A stretch of DNA of 64,000 nt from Gammaproteobacteria bacterium. Its GTDB lineage: Bacteria; Pseudomonadota; Gammaproteobacteria; DAOVJZ01. Under the pieces are notes generated by a model. It was given only the letters and a program-made list of their open reading frames with translations, made no database searches and was not told the DNA's origin. A program made the translations under genes and the position numbers. The DNA is taken from positions 11,668-75,667 of the forward strand of contig JAOUJV010000001.1 in the NCBI GenBank assembly GCA_029882995.1. The letters are read 5' to 3'. This document shows positions 218 through 63,544 of this stretch, in pieces; positions within the stretch are counted from its first letter, which is position 1, and every line of letters begins with the position of its first letter.

Positions 218-423
218 TTTAAAACCAATGAGTTACGATTGGTTTTTCAATTCTAAATATCCCCTAATAAGCACTAAAAATTTCTATGTAGGCCTATAGT
301 AGTCAGGTAGAATAAAAAATATCTTGCTTTGTCATATTCTCTATATACACCCTTTATTTATGGTAATCTCAATTAGAATTTAATAAACCACACTCATTCT
401 GTTTTTAAAGCAAGATTTTATAT

Positions 424-3309
424 ATGAACAATAAGCACTTAAATAGAATCACTATTTCCCTAGTGAAATCCAAAAAAGCAAGAAATTTACTCAGAGGGAT
501 GATAGGCGAAACTGAACATTACAAAGTAAAAAATACGCTTAGAAAAATAAAAAATAATTGTTCATCTATCGAATATAAGAAGTCAATAGAGGTCATTAGG
601 GCGGCGGAATTATTTGAACACAACTCTGTTTCCAGAGATTTTAATAAAGTATGCCCAAATACCTTGCCTGATTTAATGAGATTTACTGAAAATGAAATCA
701 TAGACAAAATCAACTCCCAAGAGGATCGAATAAACAAATTGCTTCACTTATATCGAGACTTGTTAGTTTCGATACAGGAAATGAAGATTCGCGATTCATT
801 AAAATTATGCCGATCAATTATTGAGCATAAAGGTGTTTCATGCTGCTTAATTAGAATTCTGTTTTATATTAAAAATCACGCGGACGATTATGATGATTAC
901 GATGATGCGCAAGAAGGTGTGGAAGATATTTTTCGCAAAATAGAGATGAGTAACATTGGTTATTTAGATAACGCAATAAAGGAGTTAAGTAATTCAAGGA
1001 CGGATTATTTTAACATATGTAAAAAAATAAATGGAGATCAAAACAAAACCCCTTTGAATCTTATTGCAAGAGATTTTATTTCTCACGTCACAAGCGATGA
1101 GATCGTTTTCTTGAACACATTAAACGCATACTATACGTTTTCATTGCTAGACTCTTTTCTTTATATTTCTAGTGTAAATAGATTAAAGTTACCCTTAACA
1201 AAGGGTGTGAAAAACATCAAATCAAGCTTGATGGATTCGTTTTATTCGCTAAGCAATATTAAAGTTAATACTAAATTGTATTTGAATGAATATTATGATG
1301 ATTTGGATATCAATTTATTCAGAGAAAGTTTCTTATTGATAGAGCTTGACGAGCTATTTAAATATAAAACCATTCACGGAGCCCTTTATAACACTAGTGA
1401 AAAAAAGGAAGATGTAAGATTACCCGTTGAAAAGCGATTATTGAGTGATTATTTTGAGAGTATTAAGTCGCTATCTGACCTGCGCAATCATGAAAACGGG
1501 GGTAACGGAATCAGCATGGATAAATACGATTCGGAAAAGTGTAGTCACTTCGAAAACTCGAGCGCTTTATTGTACTACATAGAAAAAAATGACGCTAATA
1601 TTTCTGGTGAGGAGAAAATATTTATAGAGTTAATGTCATACACTAGAGATATCGGATATACCTGCCCAAGCCATTACATTAAGAAAATTCAACACAATGC
1701 AGATAGTGATGAGCTTAGGTTAGTTCTGGCGTGTTTGATATCTATAAAAGACAAAAGCCAGATCGCCGATCATGAATTAAGAAGGGTAATGCAAAAATTA
1801 GCCACATCAAAGTTCGATTCAAAGATTAAATATCTTGTTAGGTATCTTTATGATATCTCCCCCTCCGTAACTCACCACTTGATGCAAGTGTGTGATGAAA
1901 CATTTCTGAGTAAGCTTTTTCATTTAACAGAAAAGCCAAACAAGGCAATTGAAGACAGGGCCGACATGCTAGAATGGTATGGGGAACAAATCAAAGATCT
2001 CTCCTACATTGAGAGAGCCAAAAACCTAAGAATTGATGTTCAAATAAATAAAGAAAAAGGAATGATTGACGACTCAAGGATTTATGTTGACCCCCTTAAG
2101 TTTACTCAGTGGATTAATGATAACATCCTCAATGATATTACTCTTCTTCTGGAGGCAAAAGAAAATAAAAACGAATTCACTGCGCAACCTCTTGACTGGA
2201 GAAAAGTACAAAACGGAATATCGAACGATGAGCAAATAGCCTCATTATTATTAAAGTGCTATTCGGAATTTTGTAACAACAAACTTTTTGGAATAGCTTC
2301 ATATCTTGGTCGGCGCATACGCCATGGTACATTTAAAGGGACAGCATTAAAGGAAGTAAAGGACTTTTCTTCAAACAAAAAATATGAGGATATTTTCAAT
2401 GACCGTGATCTTTCGGATTGTTATAATGACTGGTTAAAATGTTACGAGAACATGTTGGAGGAATTAAAGAAATCTTATTTGCATATAAAAAGCAAAAAAA
2501 AGCCACTAGGCCTGATTCATTCCAATATAGGCACCACCTCAAAAAATATAATTGCAAATCATATGCTTCATGATATTTTGAAATCATATAATAAAAACGG
2601 AACCTCCTTGGAGGTGCCGTACCTTGTAACAGAATATTGCTGGAGATTTATTGAGGAAGATTTAGCGAATATCAGAAAGCGTCTTATGGAGTATAAGTCA
2701 AAACATGCTGTGTTTGGATTCAGACTTAATTATTCAAGACTGCTAAAAAGAAAGCATATTAACGAATTCTGCCAAGAATTGAATTCTGTAACAGCTGAAA
2801 AATTTAGAACAATATCTTCTTGGTTTAATAAGCCCTCTATTGCATCACCTTCAGCCAATCTCACCTTATTATTTAAGGCAGTAATATCTGAGATAAAAGG
2901 ATTTTTTACACTATTTGAGCCTACAATCATACACAAGGAAAGTGATTTTAATATTAGTGGCGGCCTTTATTTTGTTATATATGATGCTTTATATATATTG
3001 ATTTATAATGCCGCAAAATATGGCAAAGAGAATAGTGAGCTTGAATTCAAGGTTATACCCCATAGTGAACACCAAGTGATTAATATTTCAATAACGTCTG
3101 AAGCAAAAAATAGTAAAAGTTTAGCTGAATCTAAGCGTTTGATAAATGCGGCCTTAAACGCTGATTTTGAAAACGCCCACATAGAAGAGGGTAAAAGCGG
3201 AATAAAGAAATTAAGAAGAATGGCGAATGATCAATATATTAGCAATGTGAGATATACTTTCCCTTCTAACAAAATAACTGCCTCATTTGACTTTAGCGTG
3301 GAATTTTAG
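424..3309 (+). CDS. Large cytoplasmic sensor protein with C-terminal histidine-kinase-like ATPase domain (N-box-like IYNAAKYG); Detocs DtcA-like
   Basis: 961 aa ORF with no TM segments and AT-rich codon usage. The C-terminus has HATPase_c-like motifs. Its stop lies 2 nt before a receiver-only gene. Confidence 0.6.
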   Translation: MNNKHLNRITISLVKSKKARNLLRGMIGETEHYKVKNTLRKIKNNCSSIEYKKSIEVIRAAELFEHNSVSRDFNKVCPNTLPDLMRFTENEIIDKINSQEDRINKLLHLYRDLLVSIQEMKIRDSLKLCRSIIEHKGVSCCLIRILFYIKNHADDYDDYDDAQEGVEDIFRKIEMSNIGYLDNAIKELSNSRTDYFNICKKINGDQNKTPLNLIARDFISHVTSDEIVFLNTLNAYYTFSLLDSFLYISSVNRLKLPLTKGVKNIKSSLMDSFYSLSNIKVNTKLYLNEYYDDLDINLFRESFLLIELDELFKYKTIHGALYNTSEKKEDVRLPVEKRLLSDYFESIKSLSDLRNHENGGNGISMDKYDSEKCSHFENSSALLYYIEKNDANISGEEKIFIELMSYTRDIGYTCPSHYIKKIQHNADSDELRLVLACLISIKDKSQIADHELRRVMQKLATSKFDSKIKYLVRYLYDISPSVTHHLMQVCDETFLSKLFHLTEKPNKAIEDRADMLEWYGEQIKDLSYIERAKNLRIDVQINKEKGMIDDSRIYVDPLKFTQWINDNILNDITLLLEAKENKNEFTAQPLDWRKVQNGISNDEQIASLLLKCYSEFCNNKLFGIASYLGRRIRHGTFKGTALKEVKDFSSNKKYEDIFNDRDLSDCYNDWLKCYENMLEELKKSYLHIKSKKKPLGLIHSNIGTTSKNIIANHMLHDILKSYNKNGTSLEVPYLVTEYCWRFIEEDLANIRKRLMEYKSKHAVFGFRLNYSRLLKRKHINEFCQELNSVTAEKFRTISSWFNKPSIASPSANLTLLFKAVISEIKGFFTLFEPTIIHKESDFNISGGLYFVIYDALYILIYNAAKYGKENSELEFKVIPHSEHQVINISITSEAKNSKSLAESKRLINAALNADFENAHIEEGKSGIKKLRRMANDQYISNVRYTFPSNKITASFDFSVEF

Positions 3310-3311
3310 AT

Positions 3312-3758
3312 ATGAATATACTTGTTGTTGAAGATGATTCGTTTAAATTTTCAAAAATAGAGACTCTTATTGAAAACACTTTGGGTAAAGTGAAAATAAC
3401 AAGGTTCGATAATATTCATGACACTGTTATTTATTTCGAGTCCAACATCCCGGACAAAATAATTTTGGATATGTCACTACCTAGTCATGCAGCCAAAGTG
3501 GGCGAGGGAAGCCCCTTGTCAATGCCTGCTGGAGGGATTGAAATTATACTTGAGTTAAAAAGTCTAAACATGATAGATATACCGATTCTAATACTAACCC
3601 AATACCCTGAAATTGAAATTGAAAATGAATACTATTCTATAGACGAGTCTGGGATTGAAATTAAAAATATTTACGGCATAAATAATCTGGCCGTTGTTCT
3701 TTATGAGAATGATTCATCTGACTGGAAGGATGAAGCTGTTGATTTTTTGAGGTTATAA
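3312..3758 (+). CDS. Stand-alone receiver (REC) domain protein; Detocs DtcB-like buffer
   Basis: 148 aa. N-terminus ILVVEDD and phospho-acceptor context ILDMSLP are typical of CheY-like receivers. There is no output domain. Confidence 0.6.
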   Translation: MNILVVEDDSFKFSKIETLIENTLGKVKITRFDNIHDTVIYFESNIPDKIILDMSLPSHAAKVGEGSPLSMPAGGIEIILELKSLNMIDIPILILTQYPEIEIENEYYSIDESGIEIKNIYGINNLAVVLYENDSSDWKDEAVDFLRL

Positions 3759-4928
3759 ATGAATATTTTATTAATTGAAGATCAAGAAAATAAAATCACT
3801 CTGGTTGAAGAGTTGATACGTGACAATGTTGAAGGCGATCAGTGTGTAATAATAAAAGCGAAATGTTTGGAGCAAGCGAGAAGAGAGATAATAGGAAAAT
3901 CCTTTGATCTTATTATTTTTGATATCTACCTCCCTTTGACGCCCGAGACTAACTCTGAAGTTGTTGATATATCGTTAGACATTATTAACGAATTTTCACA
4001 GAGCGCCAATAACTACCAAGCTGAAACTATAGCAATAACACAATACGATATTGAAGATATCGACAATATGGCCCTTTTTAATCAAGCAGGAGTTCCTGTT
4101 GTCCATTTTTCAGAGGAAGATGAAAAATGGAAAGACCCCCTTAGATTAAAGATAAAAAAAATCACTGATAGAGTGAAGTATGATTTTTTAATTTTTTGCG
4201 CTTTAAGCAAAGAGCGTTTAGCATTTTCAAATACAAATGCAGAAATGGGAGTGTTGAGAACAATGTATGGCCTTAACTGCCAAGATATAAAAATTGGAGG
4301 CTGCAATGGATTATGTATCACTCCGAACAATATGGGTCTCATTAATATGGCTATTTCAGCCTCAAAAGCAATAGAACACTTTCAACCAAAGATCGTTTCC
4401 ATGAGCGGAATTTGTGCCGGAGTTGAAGGAGAGGCAAATTTATTGGACGTAATCATTGGTGATCTTTGCTGGGAATATCAGACAGGAAAATTCAAAGATA
4501 ATGAATTTAAGCAAGAACCATATCAATCACCGATTGACGGCCGTATTAAAGTAGAGCTTGAGCAACTATGTGAGTCTGCTGAGATGCTGAACAATATTAA
4601 GAGAGGACTTTTTGAAACGGAGTTAAAAGACTCCAAGGTGTTTCTAGGTCCAATATCATCTGGTTCCGCCGTAATAGCCGATGCGAAAAAGATGGCAGAA
4701 ATAGGATTGCAACATCGAAAAATGGCCGGCCTTGAAATGGAAATGTATTCTTTATATGAGGCAGCAAGACAATCATTGTGTAGGCCTTTGTATTTTGGTG
4801 CTAAGACTGTTGTCGATTTAGGTAATACTATAAAAGGGGACACCCTTCATTCTACAGGTTCAACCCTTTCTGCAAGGCTAGTAACACATTATTTAGAATC
4901 TAAGTTGCCTGTTTTAAATATGGATTAA
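3759..4928 (+). CDS. Receiver domain fused to PNP_UDP_1 (purine nucleoside phosphorylase / MTA-nucleosidase-like) domain; Detocs DtcC-like effector
   Basis: 389 aa. N-terminus has ILLIEDQ ... DLIIFDIYLP (REC). The C-terminal half has GICAGVEGEANLLDVIIGD and AGLEMEMYSLYEAA, resembling the Pfs/PNP catalytic (v)EME motif. The start codon abuts the previous stop (taa-atg). Confidence 0.6.
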   Translation: MNILLIEDQENKITLVEELIRDNVEGDQCVIIKAKCLEQARREIIGKSFDLIIFDIYLPLTPETNSEVVDISLDIINEFSQSANNYQAETIAITQYDIEDIDNMALFNQAGVPVVHFSEEDEKWKDPLRLKIKKITDRVKYDFLIFCALSKERLAFSNTNAEMGVLRTMYGLNCQDIKIGGCNGLCITPNNMGLINMAISASKAIEHFQPKIVSMSGICAGVEGEANLLDVIIGDLCWEYQTGKFKDNEFKQEPYQSPIDGRIKVELEQLCESAEMLNNIKRGLFETELKDSKVFLGPISSGSAVIADAKKMAEIGLQHRKMAGLEMEMYSLYEAARQSLCRPLYFGAKTVVDLGNTIKGDTLHSTGSTLSARLVTHYLESKLPVLNMD

Positions 4929-4973
4929 CGAATATTTGAGCCCAGAGTAAACCTCGAATTTCATTAACCAAAC

Positions 4974-5432
4974 TCAACCAAACTTCTTATCCGCACTCAA
5001 TCCTGCCAGTCTTGTATGCAGTTCTTCATACATTGCCATTAACTGTTGTCCTATTTCCTGTTCGGACGTGCCAAGCAGTTTGTTCATTTCATAAAATTCA
5101 ACGGTGTCTTTGCGAAAGGATTTCATGAGCGGTGAGTCCCTGTTTTCGTGGTATAGCTTCATGCGTTCACGCACTTCTTCAAACGGCATCTCTGGTGGGC
5201 CAATATAGATCAATTCGCCGTAGGCCATTGCACGACTGCCGTTGCCTTCGACATTTGGCCCAATACGCTTGCCTTCGGCTCCGGGCATGAATTTTGACTG
5301 ACTGCTGATGGTGATTGTGTCCGTGTGCGGCAATTTCTCACCGCTGGTGTGGTGTGATTTGTCCGGCGGTGTTTGCGGATTGGTGACCGGATCGTAGGCG
5401 GCAGGTGGTTTTATGGCATTTATGCTCATCAA
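4974..5432 (-). CDS. hypothetical protein
   Basis: 152 aa ORF with normal GC content and no recognizable motif. Confidence 0.4.
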   Translation of the reverse strand: MMSINAIKPPAAYDPVTNPQTPPDKSHHTSGEKLPHTDTITISSQSKFMPGAEGKRIGPNVEGNGSRAMAYGELIYIGPPEMPFEEVRERMKLYHENRDSPLMKSFRKDTVEFYEMNKLLGTSEQEIGQQLMAMYEELHTRLAGLSADKKFG

Positions 5433-31774: not shown

Positions 31775-32848
31775 CTAGAAACGGATATGTGCAGATGCAT
31801 TCAGACTGTTACGAGCGCCACGCCAGTTATCGATGTGGAACTTCGTAAACGGCAGTTCAGTTAGTTCAAAGAAGCGTGGCCAGCCAATACGTTCAACCCA
31901 GTCACCGATACGCTCCCAATCCTGAGCATCCTTTTTATAGACGGCAAGGATGTTCTTGACGATTTCAGCAACCTCAGGCCAGCGAGGTGCATTGTTAGGA
32001 ATGCCTGCTGCCACAAGTTTATGGAACATTGGTTTGCTACGCGCATTTGAATGTTTACCACCAATCCAGATAGCCAGCTTGGTGAATTCAGAATCATTAA
32101 TCTGCATAGGAGGGCATGGAGGGAAACATGCACCGCAACAGATACATTTCTTCTCATCAACTTCAAGTGAAGGCTTGCCGTTAACCATGGCAGGACGAAT
32201 CGCAGCTACCGGGCAACGTGCAACAACTGATGGACGTTCACATGCATTAGCTACCAGATCATGATTAATCTTTGGTGGCTTTGTGTGTTGAACGTTAATC
32301 GCGATATCACCCTGACCACCACAGTTAATCTGGCAGCAGGAAGTAGTGATATGAACGCGGTTAGGCATTGTTTCATTAGTATATTCTTCATACAGCTCAT
32401 CCATCAGTGCCTTAACAACACCAGATGCGTCTGTACCAGGAATGTCACAGTGCAACCAGCCCTGTGTGTGAGAGATCATTGTCACTGAAGGACCAGTACC
32501 ACCAACAGGGTAACCGGCATCTTCGATGGCCTTAATCAAAGGTTCAACCTTTGCTTCATCAGTTACCATGATTTCCATGTTACTGCGGATTGTAAAGTGA
32601 ACATAACCTTCACCGAATTCATCAGCGATATCACACAGAAGGTTGATTTCGTATGGACCTAATTGACGCTGGGTACCGAAACGAACTGTCCATACCTTGT
32701 CGCCGCTTTTCGCAACGTGCATAAGTACACCAGGACGTAAACGCTCATGATATGACCATGCGCCATAGTTATTAAGGAACACCGGGTGCATGTATTGAAA
32801 TGCATCTGGTACACCACTTTCGATTGGATGACGAGGAGTTTCTGCCAT
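31775..32848 (-). CDS. dsrB: Dissimilatory sulfite reductase beta subunit (reverse, oxidative type)
   Basis: Start MAETPRHP with a GGAGG RBS. Siroheme/FeS Cys motifs and a ferredoxin insert CPVAAIRP...CICCGACF. ~357 aa. Confidence 0.92.
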   Translation of the reverse strand: MAETPRHPIESGVPDAFQYMHPVFLNNYGAWSYHERLRPGVLMHVAKSGDKVWTVRFGTQRQLGPYEINLLCDIADEFGEGYVHFTIRSNMEIMVTDEAKVEPLIKAIEDAGYPVGGTGPSVTMISHTQGWLHCDIPGTDASGVVKALMDELYEEYTNETMPNRVHITTSCCQINCGGQGDIAINVQHTKPPKINHDLVANACERPSVVARCPVAAIRPAMVNGKPSLEVDEKKCICCGACFPPCPPMQINDSEFTKLAIWIGGKHSNARSKPMFHKLVAAGIPNNAPRWPEVAEIVKNILAVYKKDAQDWERIGDWVERIGWPRFFELTELPFTKFHIDNWRGARNSLNASAHIRF

Positions 32849-32928
32849 TATTGCCTCCCAAATTATACGTTTGTAATCTTTGTTTAATGGCCTGCAGACA
32901 AGCAGGCCATTCACTCATTAGTAATTAA

Positions 32929-34245
32929 TTAGCCAGCCTTGCGAGCTTTCCACTTTTCAGCTTCAGCATCCCAATCGTCCATACGGACATAAGAACTCTG
33001 ACGTGCACTGCTAATCATGTTTGGATCCGGCTCAATACCGATACCTTCCAGGAAGTTAACCAGACCAATACGCTCAATTGTTTCACCAGTACGTTCGTGC
33101 TCAAGCGCATTTTCCGCCCAGAAATCAATGATTGTTTCAGCTAGTTCTTTCAGTGCTTCATAATCATCATCAGATTCCAGCTTCATGAATGGAACAAGAA
33201 CTGTACCCATAGTGTCACCAATCTTCAGGGTACGCTTACCACCCAGCAGAATTGTTACACCCTTGTCATCACCCGGGCTCAGTGCCTTGGTCATAACGTT
33301 GATACAATGCATGCAACGTACACAGTTACGGTTATCAACAGCCAGTGTGTCGTCATCATTCAATGACAATGCTTTAGTCGGGCAACGACTTACAACGTTA
33401 TCAACAATGTATTTACGACCCTTGTCAGCAACGTACTTCTTGACTTCTGCCTGATCAACTTTCATATCATCACGCCATGTACCAATTACAGCGAAGTCAG
33501 AACGCTGAATTGAGTTCATGCAGTCATTCGGGCAACCGGATACCTTGAACTTGAATTTGTATGGAAGAGCAGGGCGATGCATGTCATCCATAAAGTTATT
33601 AACAAGCAGACGGTGAATTTTTTGTTCGTCACAATTTGATTGTTCACAACGTGCTGCACCGATACAGGACATACCAGTACGTACGCATGGGCCGGCACCA
33701 CCAAGGTCCCAACCGTATTCGTTGATTTCATCAAAGAATGTTTGCACGTTCTGAGTAGTTGTACCGATAAACATAATGTTGCCTGTCTGTCCGTGGAATG
33801 CAATCAGACCAGAACCATGCTTATCCCATGAATCGGAAAGCTGGCGTAACATTTTTGTAGAGTAGTGATTACCAGCAGGTGGTTGCACACGAATAGTGTG
33901 GAACTCTTTAGATTCTGGGAACATAGGTTTGCCATCTGTACCCATCAATTCTGTAAAGCGAGGAATAATACCGCCGCCGTAACCAAAGACAGAAACCGTA
34001 CCACCTTTCCAGTAACCAAGACGTGTCTTGTAGGAATGCTCCAGCTGTCCAAGAAGGTCAACCATCATATTGCCAAACTTGTCTTGCATTGCCAGGCGCT
34101 TAAGACCTGTTACAAAGCTTGGCCAAGGACCTTTTTCCAGCTCATCCAGATTAGGAGTATTGTGGAATGGCTTGGATGATTTCTTCTCTGAAGGAAGATA
34201 AGTACAGTGCTTCTCAGGATTCTTTGGTTTGTCTGTTGCACTCAT
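32929..34245 (-). CDS. dsrA: Dissimilatory sulfite reductase alpha subunit (reverse, oxidative type)
   Basis: ATG at 34245 with an AGGAGG RBS. ~438 aa with siroheme-FeS binding Cys motifs. First gene of the operon. Confidence 0.92.
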   Translation of the reverse strand: MSATDKPKNPEKHCTYLPSEKKSSKPFHNTPNLDELEKGPWPSFVTGLKRLAMQDKFGNMMVDLLGQLEHSYKTRLGYWKGGTVSVFGYGGGIIPRFTELMGTDGKPMFPESKEFHTIRVQPPAGNHYSTKMLRQLSDSWDKHGSGLIAFHGQTGNIMFIGTTTQNVQTFFDEINEYGWDLGGAGPCVRTGMSCIGAARCEQSNCDEQKIHRLLVNNFMDDMHRPALPYKFKFKVSGCPNDCMNSIQRSDFAVIGTWRDDMKVDQAEVKKYVADKGRKYIVDNVVSRCPTKALSLNDDDTLAVDNRNCVRCMHCINVMTKALSPGDDKGVTILLGGKRTLKIGDTMGTVLVPFMKLESDDDYEALKELAETIIDFWAENALEHERTGETIERIGLVNFLEGIGIEPDPNMISSARQSSYVRMDDWDAEAEKWKARKAG

Positions 34246-34655
34246 TAGCAACTACCTCCTGTTTCAATTCGTTATTAACGTTATATAAACGGCGCGTACA
34301 GCACCCCATAAAAAAGCTGGGCGAATTGTAGTAAGTGTGTATGCCGCTTAGGAATTCATCTTTAGGGGTGTTTTACCTACCCCCTACCTATCCCAAACGG
34401 GATATAAGCAACCGATGTTTTGGAGTAATTGATTGATTTCAATAGTAATTACAGCAAAGCATCTTGAAGGCGCAGAATTATAGGTAAATCTTAAGGTTAT
34501 TGCACGCATTATTTCACTGGGTATTATGAGGGGGATTATATTGAGCAGGCAGTAATAATAGACGTCGTTCCAATTCCTGAGTAAAATGTTAGGGTATATT
34601 AGTTGTCATATATTTTAAGTGAGCTATATATGCCATTGTTAATAAAGAAGATATT

Positions 34656-35576
34656 ATGTCGCCAGTAGTCCAGATAAAGGTAGCGCCACCCCAAATTGAC
34701 AGCCCGTTTCATCTTGATAATGAAAAGGGGTATCAACTTTGGCGCGAGCAAAAACGGGATAACTACCCGTCAAAACCGGAAGAGTTGTTGGTTTCTGTCT
34801 CTGATCCCTTCCATATCACTGTCGACGAGCGAGGGCAGATTTTGTCGCTGTGCAGTAAGACAAATATCTCTATATATAGAACCTCACTTGAAGGAGTAGC
34901 TGATAAGGAGATCCCCAGAGCTATTGGCCATGCCTTTGGCCTGAATCGACTTGACCCGAATATGTTGGCAGATGATGATGGCATTACTTCATTGCAGGTT
35001 GTGGCCGGCAAGTCTGTGCGTGGCTACATACCGTATTCAAATAAACGGCTACTGTGGCATACCGATGGCTACTACAATACGACTGAACAGCAGATACGCT
35101 CTATTATTCTGCATTGTGTCACTCCGGCATCTGGTGATGGGGGCGAAAACGGGTTATTGGATCATGAAATGGCCTATATCCTGCTTCGAGACAGAAACCC
35201 CGACTTTATTCAGGCATTGATGGCACCGGATGCAATGACAATTCCGGCAAATGAGGAAGCGGCTGAACAGGACAGAAAATCAGTTACAGGCCCGGTGTTT
35301 TCGGTTGATTCTTCCGATGGCAGTCTCCATATGAGATATACAGCCCGTACCCGCAGTATCATATGGAAAGATAATGAAGTCACCCGTAAGGCAGTTGCGT
35401 TTTTAGGCGACTTACTCGAAAACGGCAATGACTATATATTCAATTACAAGTTGCGCGCAGGAGAAGGACTGATTTGTAACAATGTCCTGCACAAAAGAAC
35501 TGCATTTGAAAATACAGAAGGTGCAGATCGTTTGTTATATCGTGCGCGTTATTATGACCGTATCAAGCATACATAA
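34656..35576 (+). CDS. TauD/TfdA-family Fe(II)/2-oxoglutarate-dependent dioxygenase
   Basis: 306 aa with LLWHTDGYYN (HxD iron ligands) and a distal His. Divergent from dsrA. Confidence 0.6.
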   Translation: MSPVVQIKVAPPQIDSPFHLDNEKGYQLWREQKRDNYPSKPEELLVSVSDPFHITVDERGQILSLCSKTNISIYRTSLEGVADKEIPRAIGHAFGLNRLDPNMLADDDGITSLQVVAGKSVRGYIPYSNKRLLWHTDGYYNTTEQQIRSIILHCVTPASGDGGENGLLDHEMAYILLRDRNPDFIQALMAPDAMTIPANEEAAEQDRKSVTGPVFSVDSSDGSLHMRYTARTRSIIWKDNEVTRKAVAFLGDLLENGNDYIFNYKLRAGEGLICNNVLHKRTAFENTEGADRLLYRARYYDRIKHT

Positions 35577-35606: not shown

Positions 35607-35810
35607 ATGTTATACCTGAGCGAAATATTAATGCAGCACCATGAAATAAACACTTTTGAAGAATTGCTTAAGATCATTCCTGTGGTTGCAAAAGAAAAAG
35701 GCGAAATATTTATGCATATTGATGTTAAACCACAATATGCTGATGTGCCTGCAAACTGGGAAGATAAATTAGAGGGCGCGTTTGCTGGTGTTCACTCAGT
35801 TACAAATTAA
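35607..35810 (+). CDS. small hypothetical protein
   Basis: 67 aa ORF in the same orientation between the dioxygenase and downstream genes. Confidence 0.3.
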   Translation: MLYLSEILMQHHEINTFEELLKIIPVVAKEKGEIFMHIDVKPQYADVPANWEDKLEGAFAGVHSVTN

Positions 35811-35835
35811 AAAAATTTTAAAACAGGATTTGCAA

Positions 35836-36543
35836 ATGAAATATTTAAACAGAGATCAGTCAATCATCGATGCCGATGATGCCAGTGATGCCGAGGTGCC
35901 GACTGCACAATTTGAGGCAAAAGTGCAGGCATTACAAGAACAGATGCTTTCATTACCCCCGGGACATCATCCTATGGAGAAGGCAAGGTTACAACTTGAT
36001 ATTGGTCCTTTGCTGTTAGGTCTTGAAAAAAATGAAGACGCATGGGATATCGCAAGAGATGCATTTGATGTTTATGTTGAAAATGAATCATGGGAAGGTG
36101 CTGTTATTGCCTGTGAAATTATGTTTAATGCAGATCAGACAGATTCGCTCGCAGCGTTGGGGCAAGGGGTCTGGCTGGGAGTCACTTTCCCGGATGTTGA
36201 TCCTGAACTAACTGTTGTCATGCTTGATCACATTATTGATGAAACACCGGAAGATTCAGATGGGGCGGCACTGGCCGCTGCAACAGCGAGTTATATTGTC
36301 GATTTTCGTACAGAAGGGAAGAAGCATGAAGATCTGCAGTTTTTTACAAGCCAAAGACTGGCAGAAGTTGCTCGCCGTCACAGTAATGTGGAGACGCAGG
36401 AGTCTTTTGATAAATGGGTTGAAAAGCTCGAACTAAATGACCCTGAAAAATTTCTTGTGCGTTTAAGAAATGTAGTTGATGTATTGGTGCAGGAAAGCTG
36501 GTGGATTGATCGTGAAGCTATCTGGGCAAAGCTGCCGCACTAA
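35836..36543 (+). CDS. hypothetical acidic protein
   Basis: ATG at 35836 with an AGGA RBS (MKYLNRDQSIID). ~235 aa, no recognizable motif. Confidence 0.4.
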   Translation: MKYLNRDQSIIDADDASDAEVPTAQFEAKVQALQEQMLSLPPGHHPMEKARLQLDIGPLLLGLEKNEDAWDIARDAFDVYVENESWEGAVIACEIMFNADQTDSLAALGQGVWLGVTFPDVDPELTVVMLDHIIDETPEDSDGAALAAATASYIVDFRTEGKKHEDLQFFTSQRLAEVARRHSNVETQESFDKWVEKLELNDPEKFLVRLRNVVDVLVQESWWIDREAIWAKLPH

Positions 36544-36549
36544 CTGATT

Positions 36550-37242
36550 ATGTTTTGGCAAGAAGACGATGATAAGCCCGCAGTTGCGATAACAGATGAT
36601 ATCGTTGAACTGATTTTTAAAATCAAGTGTCAGGCGATACCGGTTGATCATGCATATGCATTATCCCAATCTGTGTTAAAGGTGCTGCCGTGGCTTGAAG
36701 AAGATGGCGCCGGCTTGCATACCATTCATGTTGTCACATCCGGTAACGGCTGGATGCGCCCTGAAAACCCTGATGAGTTGCTTTATCCGTCAAAACGTAC
36801 CCGGTTTTCCTTGCGTGTCCCCAAAGAAAGAATTTCAGATGCAGAAAAACTGGATGGTGTAGAGCTTGGTATTGCCGGCAACTCACTCATTGTCAGTGAA
36901 ATGAAAATCAAGCAAATTGAACCGCATGAAACCCTTTTTTCCCGCTATCTGATAACAGATGAAATTGAAGACGAAGAAAAATTTCTGGAAGGCATTTTTG
37001 AGCAGCTGAAGTCAATGGATATACATGTCCGTAAAATGATGTGTGGCAAGGAAAATAGAATCAAAACAAATGACGGAACAATCAAAACGCGCAGCATGAT
37101 GCTGGCAGATCTGGATGATGAGGCCTCCTTAAAGCTTCAGAAAACAGGTTTAGGTTCACTCCAACACATGGGTTGTGGCCTCTTTATCCCGCATAGAGGC
37201 ATCAAGGCGGTATCCTCAATACCTTCAAGTAGCGAAAAATAG
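36550..37242 (+). CDS. Hypothetical protein with Cas6-type glycine-rich loop (GLGSLQHMGCGLFIP) near C-terminus; possible orphan Cas6f/Csy4-like RNA endonuclease
   Basis: 230 aa. The C-terminal GhGxxxxxGhG followed by hydrophobic-Pro matches the Cas6 G-rich loop signature. The N-terminal beta-alpha region (IVELIFKIKCQ ... ALSQSVLKVL) resembles the Csy4 ferredoxin fold. No CRISPR array or other cas genes in the window. Confidence 0.35.
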   Translation: MFWQEDDDKPAVAITDDIVELIFKIKCQAIPVDHAYALSQSVLKVLPWLEEDGAGLHTIHVVTSGNGWMRPENPDELLYPSKRTRFSLRVPKERISDAEKLDGVELGIAGNSLIVSEMKIKQIEPHETLFSRYLITDEIEDEEKFLEGIFEQLKSMDIHVRKMMCGKENRIKTNDGTIKTRSMMLADLDDEASLKLQKTGLGSLQHMGCGLFIPHRGIKAVSSIPSSSEK

Positions 37243-37354
37243 AGGATTTTTTCTATAGGGTTGGGATAGAGACAAAAATTGGATTAGAATATGCGCCTGT
37301 TAAATCACTGGCAGTATTTGGAATTTGTAATCTGGAGTAACAAGAGAGGAAACA

Positions 37355-37693
37355 ATGGCTTACGAAATTGATGGTAAAACTATTGAAACAGACAAGAATG
37401 GCTATCTGGTTGAAATAACCGACTGGACTGAAAATGTTGCACAAGCAATTGCCAAGGAAGAAGGTATTGAGCTAACAGATAAACATTGGGATCTGATTAA
37501 TTTCTTACGTGATGAGTACATTAACAATGGCGGCAATCAGCCCAACACACGCAAGATTGTAAAAGCGATGTCTGATAAATGGGGAGAAAACCTGGCGCAG
37601 AAAGATATCTATGCACTTTTCCCTAAAGACCCGTCCAAGCAAGGTGGTCGTATCGGTGGCTTACCTGAAAGCCGCAGAAAGGGTGGTTACTAA
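37355..37693 (+). CDS. DsrC/TusE-family protein lacking both C-terminal cysteines
   Basis: 112 aa aligning to DsrC (…WDLINFLRDEY…) but ending GGLPESRRKGGY instead of PKPTGCV. Confidence 0.65.
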   Translation: MAYEIDGKTIETDKNGYLVEITDWTENVAQAIAKEEGIELTDKHWDLINFLRDEYINNGGNQPNTRKIVKAMSDKWGENLAQKDIYALFPKDPSKQGGRIGGLPESRRKGGY

Positions 37694-37705
37694 TCACTTT
37701 ATATA

Positions 37706-37735
37706 AAAGGGCTACATTAGTAGCCCTTTGTTTTT
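37706..37735 (+). terminator. Rho-independent terminator (aagggctac atta gtagccctt + T-run)
   Basis: Perfect hairpin plus tgtttttt after the stop at 37693. Confidence 0.5.
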
Positions 37736-37750
37736 TGGAATTTCCTAAGA

Positions 37751-38605
37751 ATGTCATATACATCACTTGTTAGCACCGATGTGCTGGCGGATCATCTTTC
37801 TGATCCTGACTGGATCGTTTTTGATTGTCGATTTACCCTGACCGCACCTGATTCCGGATATGAACAATATCTGCAAGAACATATTGATGGTGCACGCTAT
37901 GCACATCTGGATAATGATCTTTCATCACCCATTGCAGAATTAACGGGTCGCCATCCATTGCCGGACAAGAATAAATTCGTGCAATGGTTAAGAAATAACG
38001 GTGTAAACAATAACTCACAAGTTGTGGTCTATGATGAAAGTTTTGGTGCTGTGGCTGGTCGTTTATGGTGGTTATTAAAATGGGCAGGACATGATGCGGT
38101 TGCACTACTGGATGGCAGTTATCCCAAATGGCGTCGTGAAGGGCACAAGACAAGTCATGATCTCCCTGTGATTACTGAATCTGATTTTAAAGCTGATTTC
38201 AAAGATGAAATGATTGCAAGTTCTGACGAGGTCCATGAGTTTGTAAAAGGTAATAAACAAGCTGTCCTTATTGATGCGCGTGCAGAAGAACGTTTTAGTG
38301 GTGAAATCGAACTGCTGGACAAGGTGGCCGGGCATATCCCTGGGGCTATCAACTTTATGTATGAAGATAATCTCGATATGGGAGGGAATCTTCTTCCTGC
38401 CGATGAATTAAAAGAACAGTTTGAAGGTTTAATGAGCGGTGTTAAACCTGAACAAGTTATCCATATGTGTGGTTCCGGAGTGACAGCTTGTCATAATATG
38501 ATCGCAATGGAAGCTGCCGGCTTATATGGCAGTAAACTTTATATCGGATCATGGAGTGAATGGATAACTGCTCCTGATCGCCCTGTTGCTACGGGTGATG
38601 AATAG
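37751..38605 (+). CDS. sseA: Tandem-rhodanese thiosulfate/3-mercaptopyruvate sulfurtransferase (SseA-like)
   Basis: 284 aa with two rhodanese domains and the active-site loop CGSGVTA. Confidence 0.8.
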   Translation: MSYTSLVSTDVLADHLSDPDWIVFDCRFTLTAPDSGYEQYLQEHIDGARYAHLDNDLSSPIAELTGRHPLPDKNKFVQWLRNNGVNNNSQVVVYDESFGAVAGRLWWLLKWAGHDAVALLDGSYPKWRREGHKTSHDLPVITESDFKADFKDEMIASSDEVHEFVKGNKQAVLIDARAEERFSGEIELLDKVAGHIPGAINFMYEDNLDMGGNLLPADELKEQFEGLMSGVKPEQVIHMCGSGVTACHNMIAMEAAGLYGSKLYIGSWSEWITAPDRPVATGDE

Positions 38606-41920: not shown

Positions 41921-42592
41921 ATGCTCGTTAAAATTCCATCCGTTTTGAACGAATCACAACTTTCAAGAATTCAGGGCATATTATCCAATGCCAGTTTTGT
42001 CGATGGTAAATTGTCTGCCGGAATGGCGGCACAACGTGTTAAAAACAATGAAGAGATTGATGTGCGATCTCGTGAAGTCGAAATGTTAAATGAGATTGTC
42101 ATGAATAGCCTTGTTTCACATCCTTTGTATAAAGCAGCTGCCATGCCACTCAGGGTGGCTGCGCCATATTACGCGCGCTATCAACATGGAAAATACTATG
42201 GTGATCATATTGATGATCCGATCATGTTTGCCGGTTCTCCTTATCGCTCTGATGTATCAACAACTGTATTTTTGACTGACCCTGCTGATTATGAAGGAGG
42301 GGAGCTTGTTGTTAGAACCACATTCGGCGATACCGAAGTAAAATTACCTGCAGGTCATGCCGTTGTTTATCCTTCAGCCAGTATTCATCATGTTAATGAA
42401 GTGACAAAAGGTGAGCGCATTGTTGCCGTCACCTGGGCGCAAAGCATGGTCAGAGATCCGGCAAAGCGGGAAATACTGTTTGATCTTTATCATGCGCGTG
42501 AAAAGATGCTTGTTGAAATGGCAGGAAAGGAAGAGACCGATCAGATTGACCGGTCGTATGTTAATCTGGTCAGAATGTGGTCGGAGTTATGA
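41921..42592 (+). CDS. PKHD-type Fe(II)/2-oxoglutarate hydroxylase (PiuC/YbiX family)
   Basis: 223 aa with HIDD...HHV iron ligands and a double-stranded beta-helix fold signature. Confidence 0.65.
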   Translation: MLVKIPSVLNESQLSRIQGILSNASFVDGKLSAGMAAQRVKNNEEIDVRSREVEMLNEIVMNSLVSHPLYKAAAMPLRVAAPYYARYQHGKYYGDHIDDPIMFAGSPYRSDVSTTVFLTDPADYEGGELVVRTTFGDTEVKLPAGHAVVYPSASIHHVNEVTKGERIVAVTWAQSMVRDPAKREILFDLYHAREKMLVEMAGKEETDQIDRSYVNLVRMWSEL

Positions 42593-43749: not shown

Positions 43750-44793
43750 CTACAGATATATCTTTGCAATATATTCCTCAATAGGTTCCACAGCGTTAGT
43801 ATTATGCTGTTTAAATAGCGCAAGCATATTGTTTGCTACCTGATACCAGTGTTCTTCTCCTGTTTTGCAAACAGTTTCCAGTGTGGCCAGTTTTCCACTC
43901 GATAGCCACTCCTGATAGCCCTTGATGAGTTGTGGAAACAGCAGCTTTCTCAGCCCGGTCATGTTGGAAAAATAAAAATGTAATGATGCCTGATTTTGAG
44001 TTTCGATCAGCTCAGGTAGTGTGGAAATACAATCTGCCAGATGATCACGCACAGCACGCGCCTTGAATTCAGCTTTTGTACACGAAAGAGTGGCCAGCAT
44101 TTGCTCCCATTCGTCTCCCAGTAATTTACCTGCACGCGCTTCACCAATTTCATGCAAGATGGTGTTTTCCGTCTCATTATCAACAAATGCGTTTAAGAGT
44201 GCCTCCATATCACCATGATGCGGATAACATTCAATGACCTGCGCCATTGGCACATCTGTACGTTTATTCCATTTCCATTCTTCTATCTTTTCCCATAAGA
44301 ACCGCTTTAACGATTCGCGGCTAATGAAAATAGTCTGGTTCAAAAATGTCGCTGGCGGCGCAACCAGATCACGTGCATATTCGAATTGCGAGATCAAAAT
44401 AGAAATATTTTCCCGCACCTCATGTTTGAGAAGTTTACCCAGAGAAAAATGCGGTTTTGAAAAGATACCACGTCCACTGTTGTAGATATAACCATGTGGT
44501 AGCAGTTTTTCATTTATCCCTTGTGTATCAAACGGGTCAAATGATTCATTGTCAATCACAAGCTGGCTATAGGCTTCATTTTCAAGTGGTTCCCATGATT
44601 GTTCACGATGCACCATCCATGAGCCAACATCATCACGCGGGATTTTTCCGGAAAGAGGGATTTTTTGTTCCCAGCGATAATATTCGCGCATTTTGAGTAA
44701 AAAAGTACACATGGAATAATTGCCCGCATATTGTGCATCTGAAATAGCACAATTATGCTGAACTGTTTTGACCAACTCTTGCAGATACTGCAT
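43750..44793 (-). CDS. hypothetical protein
   Basis: 347 aa, no recognizable motif. Confidence 0.4.
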   Translation of the reverse strand: MQYLQELVKTVQHNCAISDAQYAGNYSMCTFLLKMREYYRWEQKIPLSGKIPRDDVGSWMVHREQSWEPLENEAYSQLVIDNESFDPFDTQGINEKLLPHGYIYNSGRGIFSKPHFSLGKLLKHEVRENISILISQFEYARDLVAPPATFLNQTIFISRESLKRFLWEKIEEWKWNKRTDVPMAQVIECYPHHGDMEALLNAFVDNETENTILHEIGEARAGKLLGDEWEQMLATLSCTKAEFKARAVRDHLADCISTLPELIETQNQASLHFYFSNMTGLRKLLFPQLIKGYQEWLSSGKLATLETVCKTGEEHWYQVANNMLALFKQHNTNAVEPIEEYIAKIYL

Positions 44794-63242: not shown

Positions 63243-63544
63243 AAAATCCCTCGGATGAATAATCCGTGCCGGTTCGACTCCGGCCCCGGGCACCATCTCT
63301 TCTTAAAACTCCACGATTAAGCCATTCCTGCTACAGTATTTTTTCGAATGGTAATTTGGCTTAAAACGTGTGAAACATGCAAATTTAGGCTTGGTCATGG
63401 CCATGTTATAACTACCACACAAAATACCATGCAATATAACGGGTTTACCCAACCAAAATAGTAGGTTATTATATACCCATATATTATTGCTGACAGTGGG
63501 TCAGCATATGATTTTGGTATATGAGATAACAAGGGGACAAGATT

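Follow-up and report, generated by a model that had tools for sequence, protein, structure and literature searches.

The closest described relatives of the protein studied here are the Cmx6 proteins of type I-MYXAN (I-B-like) CRISPR systems, for example chain B of 8FCJ and 8FCU and the proteins of Synechocystis PCC 6714 pSYLB and of the Gloeothece PCC 7424 plasmids. Family (TIGR02807, PF09559) and double ferredoxin-like fold are the same. True Cmx6 genes head cas6-cas3-cas8-cas7-cas5-cas4/1-cas2 operons, and arrays adjoin both systems that were checked. The repeats beside these two systems have the hairpin GAUGCC-G[UA]AA-GGCGUU. In Cas6 proteins, RNA binding and catalysis fall to the G-rich loop and the D-H motif. 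Cas components in non-defence roles are known from CRISPR-associated transposons, type IV systems and the Cas proteins of the Myxococcus dev operon. As far as we know, crRNA, an effector complex or further cas genes persist in these cases. The locus described here differs from them by a lone Cas6 with non-Cas partners in an energy-metabolism locus. A literature search found no paper discussing a Cas6 gene beside dsr. For the dsr operon, which sulfide, thiosulfate or sulfur can induce, we know of no identified regulator.

The window analysed is a stretch of 64,000 nucleotides from a gammaproteobacterial contig (JAOUJV010000001.1). DsrA, DsrB, DsrM, DsrK and DsrL are encoded divergently, upstream of the Cas6 cluster (Table 1). 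The three co-oriented reading frames of the first-pass annotation were recovered as described. The middle frame reaches from a TTG over 35782-36543 (253 aa). Its homologs have 234–236 aa, so that the ATG at 35836 is most likely the start.

Table 1. Features of the dsr-linked Cas6 locus, in positions of the window.
Feature	Position	Strand	Description and basis
dsrB	31775-32914		dsr operon, beyond dsrA; dsrM, dsrK, dsrL further on
dsrA	32929..34251	-	First gene of divergent oxidative-type dsr operon; Pfam NIR_SIR, NIR_SIR_ferr
-10-like hexamer TACAAT (dsrA strand)	34325..34330	-	Putative dsrA promoter; TAnAnT box at fixed offset
Conserved non-coding element	34350..34410	.	dsrA/TauD divergent intergenic region; nhmmer, ~50/65 loci
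TauD/TfdA-family Fe(II)/2-oxoglutarate dioxygenase gene	34656..35576	+	306 aa; PF02668 E=3e-19, synteny
67-aa protein gene	35607..35810	+	tblastn synteny, consensus of 74 copies
Acidic TPR-like protein gene	35836..36543	+	235 aa, all-helical, no Pfam family
Cas6-like gene	36550..37242	+	230 aa; Pfam, NCBIfam, AF2 model, Foldseek, residue conservation
Cys-less DsrC/TusE paralog gene (RspA-type)	37355..37693	+	112 aa; PF04358 119 bits, TIGR03342
Intrinsic-terminator-like hairpin	37706..37739	+	10-bp stem AAAGGGCTAC/GTAGCCCTTT, then T-run; consensus scan only
Two-domain rhodanese gene, 3-mercaptopyruvate-sulfurtransferase-like	37751..38605	+	284 aa; PF00581; NF008557 below cutoff

By its sequence and predicted structure, the 230-aa protein is a genuine, full-length Cas6 and falls into the Cmx6 family (type I-MYXAN/I-B). 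Residues 19–216 align with the entire PF09559 'Cas6' profile (E=7.2e-60, 202.7 bits, cutoff 26.7), and 130.1 bits on TIGR02807 cas6_cmx6 exceed the cutoff of 98.85. A profile search of the PDB returned type I-B CAST Cas6 (8fcj_B/8fcu_B) as the sole sequence match, with E=1e-21 for 8fcj_B. The AF2 model (pLDDT 83, pTM 0.80) and Foldseek revealed two tandem ferredoxin-like (RRM-like) domains. The top Foldseek match was again 8fcj_B (E=1.7e-16, TM 0.73/0.77), with a TM range of 0.73–0.81 for the I-B CAST Cas6. All 47 matches with E<=0.001 were labelled Cas6, Cas6e/Cse3 or Cascade. The structure and profile searches, proposed as a check of the original Cas6 call, gave neither a non-RRM fold nor an unrelated family. 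Residues 200–215 read GLGSLQHMGCGLFIPH; within them, the G-rich loop GLGSLQHMGCG (200–210) fits GhGxxxxxGhG, and among 270 homologs G200, G202, G208 and G210 hardly vary. The perfect loop from which the call started belongs to a family match far beyond chance. The suggested resemblance to Csy4/Cas6f was not borne out: best matches were type I-B CAST Cas6, then Pyrococcus Cas6 and Cas6e. Cas6 of P. furiosus and Cas6e/Cse3 are alike in RAMP/RRM-type fold and G-rich loop, but their Foldseek E-values of 1e-8 to 1e-4 are much weaker than those of I-B Cas6. Cas6f/Csy4 has this type of fold and a glycine-rich loop as well, but no structure so described was among the 47 significant Foldseek matches, and Pfam and PADLOC gave no Csy4/Cas6f match to the protein.

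Tandem Repeats Finder, a direct-repeat search and Rfam found no CRISPR array in the window. A PADLOC scan of 48 ORFs of >=150 aa detected no other Cas family, the Cas6 being the sole Cas match. Type I-MYXAN Cas3, Cas8, Cas7, Cas5, Cas4/1 and Cas2 had no tblastn match in the window or in 84 related loci with flanks of up to 10 kb on each side, where no array was found either. These searches agree with the earlier statement that the window holds neither CRISPR repeats nor other cas genes. The combination that marks a type I-MYXAN/I-B system, a cas6 with a cas operon and an array, does not occur in the window. Nothing similar to the hairpin of the true Cmx6 repeats was found at the dsr-linked locus. 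Matches to 'CARF' in the window were discarded, as they comprised only ~50–80 C-terminal residues of two ~220-aa ORFs distant from the locus.

The Cas6-like protein is a member of an old, distinct subclade outside any CRISPR-Cas system. Identity of dsr-linked members to CRISPR-linked Cmx6 is only 24–28%, and TIGR02807 scores are 98–131 bits compared to 160–255 bits for CRISPR-linked members. For this reason, the 'equivalog' label of TIGR02807, which implies the same function, is unjustified for the Cas6-like protein. Unlike CRISPR-linked Cmx6, the clade has neither cas operon nor array and is acidic, not basic (median pI 5.8 vs 9.2–9.6). The basic cluster GGKR[RK] of the G-rich loop is gone; nearly all members have 0–2 basic residues there (mode 1), the window protein none, and positive charge is reduced in the beta-hairpin region as well. 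Further differences from CRISPR-linked Cmx6 are an N-terminal extension, a 9-residue SGNGWxRP insertion and a deletion of ~11 residues before the beta-hairpin. Signatures of the subclade are an N-terminal M-[FY]-W-x-[ED], SGNGWxRP (64–71), KMxCG (162–166), TRSxMLA (180–186) and PH[KR] (214–216). The clade also has its own partners, the 67-aa and the TPR protein, and is fixed beside dsr.

Common to both groups are the G-rich loop GxGxxxxxGCGxF.P, the D-H at the start of helix 1 (D33-H34 in the alignment), R89 and R132. D33, H34, R89, R132 and the four loop glycines are near-invariant in the subclade, which speaks for purifying selection at the ancestral site of RNA binding and catalysis and suggests that a nucleic-acid site is retained. 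H34 corresponds in the alignment to the conserved D-H histidine of CRISPR-linked Cmx6 and occurs in 135 of 149 representatives; Tyr, Asn or Ala replaces it in the other 14. We assume it to be the putative catalytic His. The clade-specific cysteines C27 (88/149) and C165 (103/149) are not universal, and a cysteine relay via these residues was rejected for this.

Relatives of the Cas6-like protein turned up in the genome scan in no fewer than 567 matching stretches; grouped at 50% identity, 158 clusters scored below 1e-30. Gene order was compared by tblastn in 83 related loci, with denominators that differ per gene. The best 80 loci come almost all from sulfur-oxidising Gammaproteobacteria; all named organisms among them are sulfur oxidisers, and the same dsr-linked order occurs in three MAGs that carry other taxon labels. 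The conserved order, divergent from dsrAB, is (TauD-like)–67-aa–(235-aa TPR)–Cas6-like–Cys-less DsrC paralog–(rhodanese). It is kept beside dsr in most of 83 loci compared, and a divergent dsrA is present in 48 of 57. The linkage to dsr persists at 44–52% identity between Cas6-like proteins of several gammaproteobacterial lineages. In sulfur-oxidising Gammaproteobacteria, the module is fixed beside the oxidative dsr operon; the check for conservation of the trio, recommended with the annotation, thus came out positive across dozens of genomes. The trio of Allochromatium vinosum, Alvin_1250-1248, adjoins dsrA. In the Beggiatoaceae (L051, L059, L075), the 67-aa and Cas6-like pair is present without adjoining dsr, and in Thiosymbion (L070) the Cas6-like gene stands on its own.

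The 67-aa gene accompanies the Cas6-like gene in 75 of 81 loci. Its product has 65–75 aa across loci, a conserved core DvKPpYpDTPxNWEDrLEgAF in the consensus of 74 copies and no match in Pfam, NCBIfam or PADLOC; the window copy is free of cysteine. Some NCBI records name it a DsrC fragment, which was rejected by an hhalign probability of 0.1% against DsrC. Fusions of the 67-aa with the Cas6-like protein were considered as interaction evidence and dismissed, as the N-termini of the longer homologs are unrelated. The TPR gene immediately precedes the Cas6-like one in 56 of 79 related loci. Its product has a pI of ~4.3 (median of 120 homologs) and near-invariant C93, H132 and H182 on alternate helices.

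The cluster is opened by the TauD-like gene in 57 of 74 loci; Chromatiaceae such as Allochromatium have none. In 67 of 76 loci, the gene that comes after the Cas6-like one is DsrC-like. It has the DsrC/TusE/RspA family's fold, but its tail is LPESRRKGGY, not PKPTGCV. The tail in the window is GGLPESRRKGGY, the conserved C-terminus of the paralogs is ...GLPESRRKGGY, and the last 15 residues are free of Cys in 65 of 70 copies, while 47 of 47 true DsrC end with ...PKPTGC[VI]. The two cysteines of the C-terminal arm (…C…PKPTGCV) that define DsrC are missing in the 112-aa neighbour, and it therefore cannot serve as a DsrC trisulfide or persulfide carrier. The annotated position of the cluster, between the dsr side and a cysteine-less DsrC-like gene, is correct. 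A regulatory role has been proposed for Cys-less DsrC/RspA proteins. The hairpin right after the DsrC-like gene is a probable end of the transcription unit. A rhodanese gene follows downstream in 25 of 68 loci.

A true Cas6 without CRISPR, in a cluster kept beside dsr in many sulfur oxidisers, probably does a sulfur-linked job. Tentatively, and with somewhat less than even confidence, we propose that the trio may be a CRISPR-independent control module of the Dsr pathway, with the Cas6-like subunit as its output, most likely on RNA. The Cas6-like, 67-aa and TPR proteins would form one complex, for which synteny is the evidence. The sensing or adaptor part could be the TPR protein, which has an invariant Cys-His-His, and the nucleic-acid-binding output the Cas6-like subunit. 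The latter would most likely act on RNA by binding and perhaps by H34-dependent cleavage, using the G-rich loop, D-H, R89 and R132 that it has kept, at a target that may sit outside the locus. Divergent placement beside a promoter region is typical of regulators and counts in favour of a control module. So do the kept Cas6 core, the near-invariant Cys and His residues of the TPR protein and the A. vinosum expression ratios given below, in which the trio moves together and opposite to dsrA. The acidic clade, the lost basic loop residues, the less positive beta-hairpin region, the variable H34 (14/149) and the failure to find a conserved hairpin count against it. The fuller scenario is unlikely as a whole: a Cas6 captured early from a type I-B-like CRISPR system would now, with the small protein and a Cys/His TPR sensor, be an RNA-binding or -cleaving regulator that couples sulfur status to Dsr expression.

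The main rival, somewhat unlikely in our view, is an accessory factor that works through protein alone. In it, the Cas6 fold would be a structural or adaptor subunit that has lost RNA binding and, with the 67-aa and TPR proteins, would help to assemble, mature or feed sulfur to rDsr (DsrAB, DsrC, DsrEFH) alongside the DsrC paralog and the rhodanese. The acidic pI and the loss of basic residues from the G-rich loop and the beta-hairpin region agree with it, as do a TPR partner typical of protein–protein scaffolds, sulfur-relay-type neighbours and the lack of an RNA target in our searches. Against it, the G-rich loop and the D-H are the very residues kept in common with CRISPR-linked Cmx6. A persulfide relay by the Cas6-like and 67-aa proteins is unsupported because C27 and C165 are not universal and the 67-aa protein of the window is Cys-free. 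Published A. vinosum expression data also speak against it, as the Alvin trio is not co-regulated with dsr there. In the elemental-sulfur column, the direction of the ratio being ambiguous, Alvin_1248, 1249 and 1250 changed 12.5-, 6.3- and 17.7-fold and dsrA 0.24 (Table S2, PMC11267869). On elemental sulfur the three genes thus shift together and opposite to dsrA. On pyrite, with the same ambiguity of direction, Alvin_1248-1250 were at ~1 and dsrA at 0.04 (Table S2, PMC11267869).

The conserved element between dsrA and the TauD-like gene spans 60–90 nt across loci and includes the palindrome TATCCC-N4-GGGATA (34389-34404). A TAnAnT box sat at a constant offset in 53 of 54 loci, whereas a control window had one in just 8 of 54, and the spacing from the element to this -10-like box was 71–74 nt in 49 of 54. 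One palindrome half-site is invariant; the other is two-state (ATA or GGG) with an A.G mismatch. Folding energies of the two strands (-14.8 vs -15.9 kcal/mol) gave no significant bias (Wilcoxon p=0.06). Based on the fixed spacing, the lack of strand bias and the mismatched half-site, the element reads as DNA belonging to the putative dsrA promoter, either promoter-upstream sequence or an operator. As a transcribed Cas6 hairpin substrate it was rejected for the missing strand bias, the A.G mismatch and the fixed promoter spacing. Its geometry is like that of the true Cmx6 repeats (6-bp stem, 4-nt loop), but the sequence is dissimilar and the stem unconserved, so that a kinship was dismissed as well. 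On the dsrA strand, a few G.U-compatible palindrome cases had at first hinted at an RNA hairpin. The spacer between the Cas6 and DsrC-like genes had no conserved hairpin, just ribosome-binding-site-like words and one subclade-specific word. Predicted dsrA leaders had no universal motif and were conserved within clades only. A locus-wide search for shared perfect hairpins yielded just coding-constrained palindromes and the TATCCC element.

The element invites a reading at the DNA level, in which the module or the Cys-less DsrC paralog would bind the TATCCC/GGGATA sites and activate or repress dsr on sulfur compounds. The conserved distance to the -10-like box and the position common to both divergent units are in its favour. 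So are the proposed regulatory function of Cys-less DsrC/RspA and the work of Grimm et al. in 2010, in which A. vinosum DsrC reportedly bound DNA upstream of dsrA. We nevertheless regard it as improbable: Pfam recognised no DNA-binding domain in any cluster protein, and A. palmeri (L082) has the element, but downstream of its Cas6-like gene a tblastn screen detected nothing DsrC-like. To our knowledge, Cas6 proteins are not sequence-specific binders of double-stranded DNA.

Very improbable is an enzyme of general RNA processing that acts on a housekeeping RNA or some other RNA of the cell, its place beside dsr being a historical linkage. The Beggiatoaceae pair away from dsr and the lone Thiosymbion gene would fit, but the linkage survives the divergence between lineages to 44–52% identity, and the best 80 loci include only sulfur oxidisers among named organisms, the three other-labelled MAGs being dsr-linked too. 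An ordinary crRNA-processing Cas6 acting in trans on an array elsewhere in the genome is hardly credible: the TIGR02807 cutoff is passed and three CRISPR repeat regions are reported elsewhere in the A. vinosum genome, but the low identity and bit scores relative to CRISPR-linked Cmx6, the order kept beside a metabolic operon, the always non-cas partners and the 84 cas-free loci oppose it.

For CRISPR evolution, the clade would mark a widespread and probably vertically inherited case in which a lone Cas6 is reused outside CRISPR-Cas. For sulfur microbiology, the locus offers a conserved gene set and a promoter-upstream element directly across the dsrA promoter. If the reading as an RNA regulator is true, post-transcriptional regulators derived from Cas proteins would form a new class, and dsr would have its missing regulator. 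The question of function is directly testable, as A. vinosum with the orthologs Alvin_1248-1250 is a genetically tractable model. The novelty claimed initially stands for the linkage to dsr, on which no paper was found, and not for the family, as databases already use Cas6 and Cmx6 names. Genome annotation calls the dsr-linked genes 'type I-MYXAN CRISPR-associated' because the TIGR02807 cutoff just admits the clade, and Alvin_1248 is already annotated as 'Cas6-related protein'.

The 230-aa protein belongs, by sequence and modelled fold, to the homologous family Cas6/Cmx6. The Pfam profile PF09559 'Cas6' matched residues 19-216 over its entire length (E=7.2e-60, 202.7 bits), and NCBIfam TIGR02807 'type I-MYXAN Cas6/Cmx6' scored 130.1 bits at a cutoff of 98.85. 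The motif GLGSLQHMGCGLFIPH, on which the first-pass annotation had based a Cas6 likeness, is the glycine-rich loop of the family (residues 200-215). An AlphaFold2 model from 16 homologs (pLDDT 83, pTM 0.80) has the expected strand/helix pattern. In Foldseek, the Cas6 subunit of the type I-B CAST Cascade ranks first (8fcj_B, E=1.7e-16, TM 0.73/0.77; 8fcu_B, TM 0.75/0.81), ahead of Pyrococcus Cas6 and Cas6e. A profile search of PDB sequences gave 8fcj_B as the sole match (E=1e-21). No entry described as Csy4 or Cas6f was among the significant Foldseek matches, so the comparison with Csy4/Cas6f made earlier fails. All three co-oriented ORFs were found where the first-pass annotation had placed them. 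Homologs of the middle protein have 234-236 aa; hence the ATG at 35836 is its probable true start.

Features of the window and frequency of the genes in related loci with sufficient flanking DNA
Feature	Position	Detail	Loci
Conserved element	~34350-34410	palindrome TATCCC-AAAC-GGGATA at 34389-34404
dsrA		divergent	48/57
TauD-like gene	34656-35576		57/74
67-aa ORF	35607-35810	upstream of Cas6-like gene	75/81
Middle ORF	35782-36543	253 aa when read from TTG; upstream of Cas6-like gene	56/79
Cas6-like ORF	36550-37242	230 aa
Sigma-70-like promoter match	37261-37290	in Cas6 to DsrC-like spacer
DsrC-like gene	37355-37693	112 aa; downstream of Cas6-like gene	67/76
Terminator-like hairpin	37706-37739	strong; directly after DsrC-like gene
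Rhodanese gene	37751-38605	downstream of Cas6-like gene	25/68
PF13640 2OG-Fe(II) oxygenase gene	41921-42592	downstream of cluster	31/52
DUF6866 gene	43750-44793	checked in window, L001 and L018	3/3

This genuine Cmx6-family Cas6 lacks a CRISPR-Cas context, in agreement with the initial reading of the window. Tandem Repeats Finder (TRF), a direct-repeat finder and Rfam detected no CRISPR array in the 64 kb, and PADLOC found Cas6 as the sole Cas family among the 48 ORFs of at least 150 aa. Two weak 'CARF' matches were dismissed; each is confined to a short C-terminal part of an ORF far from the locus. With the proteins of two real type I-MYXAN systems as queries, tblastn detected homologs of Cas3, Cas8, Cas7, Cas5, Cas4/1 or Cas2 neither in the window nor in any of 84 related loci, and TRF revealed no CRISPR-like array in these loci. 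In contrast, CRISPR-linked Cmx6 of cyanobacterial plasmids are encoded by the first gene of full cas6-cas3-cas8-cas7-cas5-cas4/1-cas2 operons, adjoining arrays with a GAUGCC-G[UA]AA-GGCGUU hairpin in the repeats. The 230-aa protein is not part of any type I-MYXAN system. Automatic annotation gives it the name of an 'equivalog', which is unwarranted. CRISPR-linked proteins reach 160-255 bits with TIGR02807, dsr-linked ones 98-131 bits. The cutoff barely admits the latter, which explains why genome annotation calls these genes 'type I-MYXAN CRISPR-associated'. A 263-aa Cmx6-family protein of the Gloeobacter morelensis plasmid pGMOR1 (L090, 1474-2265) is surrounded by hypothetical proteins and a PAPS-reductase-family gene. 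No cas genes were present within the 3.6 kb examined, and this may be another non-CRISPR setting of the family.

The dsr-linked proteins form a distinct subclade with conserved partners of its own. They share 24-28% identity with five CRISPR-linked Cmx6 and the plasmid Cmx6 of L090. The two groups have in common D33-H34, with which helix 1 starts, R89, R132, Q197 and the loop GxGxxxxxGCGxF.P; H34 is present in 135 of 149 representatives and replaced by Tyr in 11. Only the dsr-linked clade has an N-terminal M-[FY]-W-x-[ED] extension, a 9-residue insertion SGNGWxRP (G67 and W68 in 147/149), the motifs KMxCG, TRSxMLA and PH[KR], and a deletion of ~11 residues ahead of the beta-hairpin. The clade is acidic to neutral, with a median pI of 5.8 for the 120 closest homologs versus 9.2-9.6 for CRISPR-linked proteins. 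The additional negative charge is located in the N-terminal extension and near the insertion, and the beta-hairpin region is less positive than in CRISPR-linked Cmx6. The basic cluster GGKR[RK], seen in the G-rich loop of four out of five CRISPR-linked proteins, has shrunk to 0-2 basic residues in nearly all dsr-linked members; the window protein retains none. The clade-specific cysteines C27 (88/149) and C165 (103/149) are not universal, which argues against a cysteine-based sulfur relay by the Cas6-like protein, and this function was discarded.

The linkage of the subclade to the oxidative dsr operon is tight and widespread. A word-indexed protein search yielded 1190 homologs; an exhaustive search of cluster representatives gave 891 clusters at E<=1e-3 and 158 at E<=1e-30. 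Scanning a single genome per species confirmed relatives in at least 567 matching stretches. The best 80 of these loci belong nearly all to sulfur-oxidising Gammaproteobacteria, among others Acidiferrobacterales, Sulfuricaulis, Chromatiales, Thiohalocapsa, Allochromatium palmeri, Beggiatoaceae, Thiotrichaceae, Arenicellales and Candidatus Thiosymbion. Three of the 80 are MAGs labelled Bacteroidota, Nitrospiraceae and Methylomirabilis, yet with an unchanged gene order. This order, leftward dsrB-dsrA and rightward (TauD-like) - 67-aa - (235-aa) - Cas6-like - DsrC-like - (rhodanese), emerged both from gene calls for three long contigs and from 83 non-redundant loci surveyed by tblastn. The position beside dsr, first noticed in the window, recurs in dozens of genomes. 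In nine loci dsrA was not within reach; L018, the one of them that was annotated, still adjoins dsrC, dsrK and dsrL without dsrAB. Candidatus Marithrix (L075) has the 67-aa/Cas6-like pair in an unrelated neighbourhood, tblastn found no further cluster genes in the Beggiatoaceae loci L051 and L059, and the Cas6-like gene of Thiosymbion L070 has no cluster partners. With the recurring PF13640 protein, the neighbourhood has two different 2-oxoglutarate oxygenases, the other being TauD-like.

A conserved core, DvKPpYpDTPxNWEDrLEgAF, characterises the 67-aa protein, which matched no known family in Pfam, NCBIfam or PADLOC. Some NCBI records (P0391, P0399) name it 'sulfur relay protein DsrC', likely a mis-annotation, since no relationship to DsrC was detectable (hhalign probability 0.1%). 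The TPR-like 235-aa protein has Cys93, His132 and His182 on alternate helices in 119-120 of 121 homologs, a pattern that suggests a metal- or sulfur-sensing site and not a plain scaffold. The 112-aa neighbour is indeed a DsrC/TusE-family member without C-terminal cysteines and with a conserved tail of its own, LPESRRKGGY. In the same loci, every true DsrC terminates in ...PKPTGC[VI]. Cysteine-less members (RspA) were reportedly put forward as regulatory by Venceslau et al. in 2014. DsrC/TusE/RspA is the name given to the family in PMC8477390. Judged from the promoter match and the terminator-like hairpin, this paralog may have a transcript of its own in addition, with separate transcription of the rhodanese gene.

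In the model species Allochromatium vinosum, the trio corresponds to Alvin_1250, Alvin_1249 and Alvin_1248 and adjoins Alvin_1251 (dsrA). The elemental-sulfur column of Table S2 in PMC11267869, compiled from data of Weissgerber et al. 2013 and, to judge from the authors' text, apparently a ratio of sulfur to sulfide, lists 12.5-fold for Alvin_1248, 6.3-fold for Alvin_1249 and 17.7-fold for Alvin_1250, with dsrA at 0.24 and the listed downstream dsr genes likewise below 1. For pyrite, the table gives about 1 for the trio and 0.04 for dsrA. On these values, the trio behaves as one unit and is not simply co-expressed with dsr.

The dsrA/TauD intergenic region spans about 330-780 bp in most loci and contains the conserved element in ~50/65 loci (nhmmer). 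The TATCCC half on the dsrA strand is invariant and often part of a TATCCC-N4-GGGATA palindrome; the opposite half alternates between ATA and GGG, with a central A.G mismatch. A second conserved block, CCCC-AAnG-nnGGAT-TTT, follows ~36-55 nt beyond the palindrome. A -10-like hexamer on the dsrA strand (TAGACT, TAAACT, TACAAT and similar; TAnAnT) was present in 53/54 loci versus 8/54 in a control window, 71-74 nt downstream of the palindrome start in 49/54. Mean folding energies of the two strands, -14.8 and -15.9 kcal/mol, did not differ significantly (Wilcoxon p=0.06). A transcribed Cas6 RNA substrate was rejected because of the missing strand bias, the A.G mismatch and the fixed -10-like spacing; the most plausible reading of the element is promoter-upstream or operator DNA belonging to the dsrA promoter. 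This promoter architecture, seen at 34325-34410 and upstream of dsrA in ~50 related loci, marks a candidate binding region for a dsr regulator. Neither the spacers between the Cas6-like and DsrC-like genes nor the predicted leaders of dsrA yielded a universal candidate, and a locus-wide search for shared perfect hairpins gave none. In Acidiferrobacterales/Sulfuricaulis-type loci (e.g. L002, L013, L016), the predicted dsrA leader has a conserved, clade-specific 3' end, ...TCCTTCCTACGTGCAGGAG, absent from the window. Its TCCT could pair with the AGGAG ribosome-binding site in a possible translational control hairpin.

A regulatory, RNA-level role of the Cas6-like protein in the Dsr pathway is our tentative reading. 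The three core proteins would act together, the retained site of G-rich loop, D-H, R89 and R132 would still bind nucleic acid, most likely RNA, and the module would control the pathway. A protein-only accessory role is the main rival and only somewhat less likely; the acidic shift of the clade, the loss of basic residues from the G-rich loop and the lack of an RNA candidate in the searches of the locus speak for it. DNA-level control through the sites upstream of dsrA is improbable. Even less probable is an unrelated RNA-processing role, which would reduce the widespread dsr linkage to a historical one. Processing of crRNA in trans is very unlikely.

We rate the protein as a domesticated Cas6 with non-Cas partners inside an energy-metabolism locus, open to direct testing in A. 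vinosum. The novelty claimed at first holds in part: the literature search found no paper discussing a Cas6 gene beside dsr, but the A. vinosum gene is already annotated as 'Cas6-related'.

Elsewhere in the window, two ~50-nt stretches (170-218 and 63244-63296) have a common 33-nt core, 85% identical, that resembles a tRNA 3' end (AAAATCCCTCGG...CCGTGCCGGTTCaAaTCCGGC...GGCACCA). ARAGORN and Rfam called no tRNA in either, and they may be att-site or tRNA-fragment remnants. The first adjoins a stretch (~219-5000) with a GC content of 33-34% versus ~43% elsewhere, which looks like an integrated island. Its ORF 424-3309 is a hit to PDC-M60A, a candidate defence family of PADLOC, and other window ORFs match PDC-M60B and PDC-M60C.
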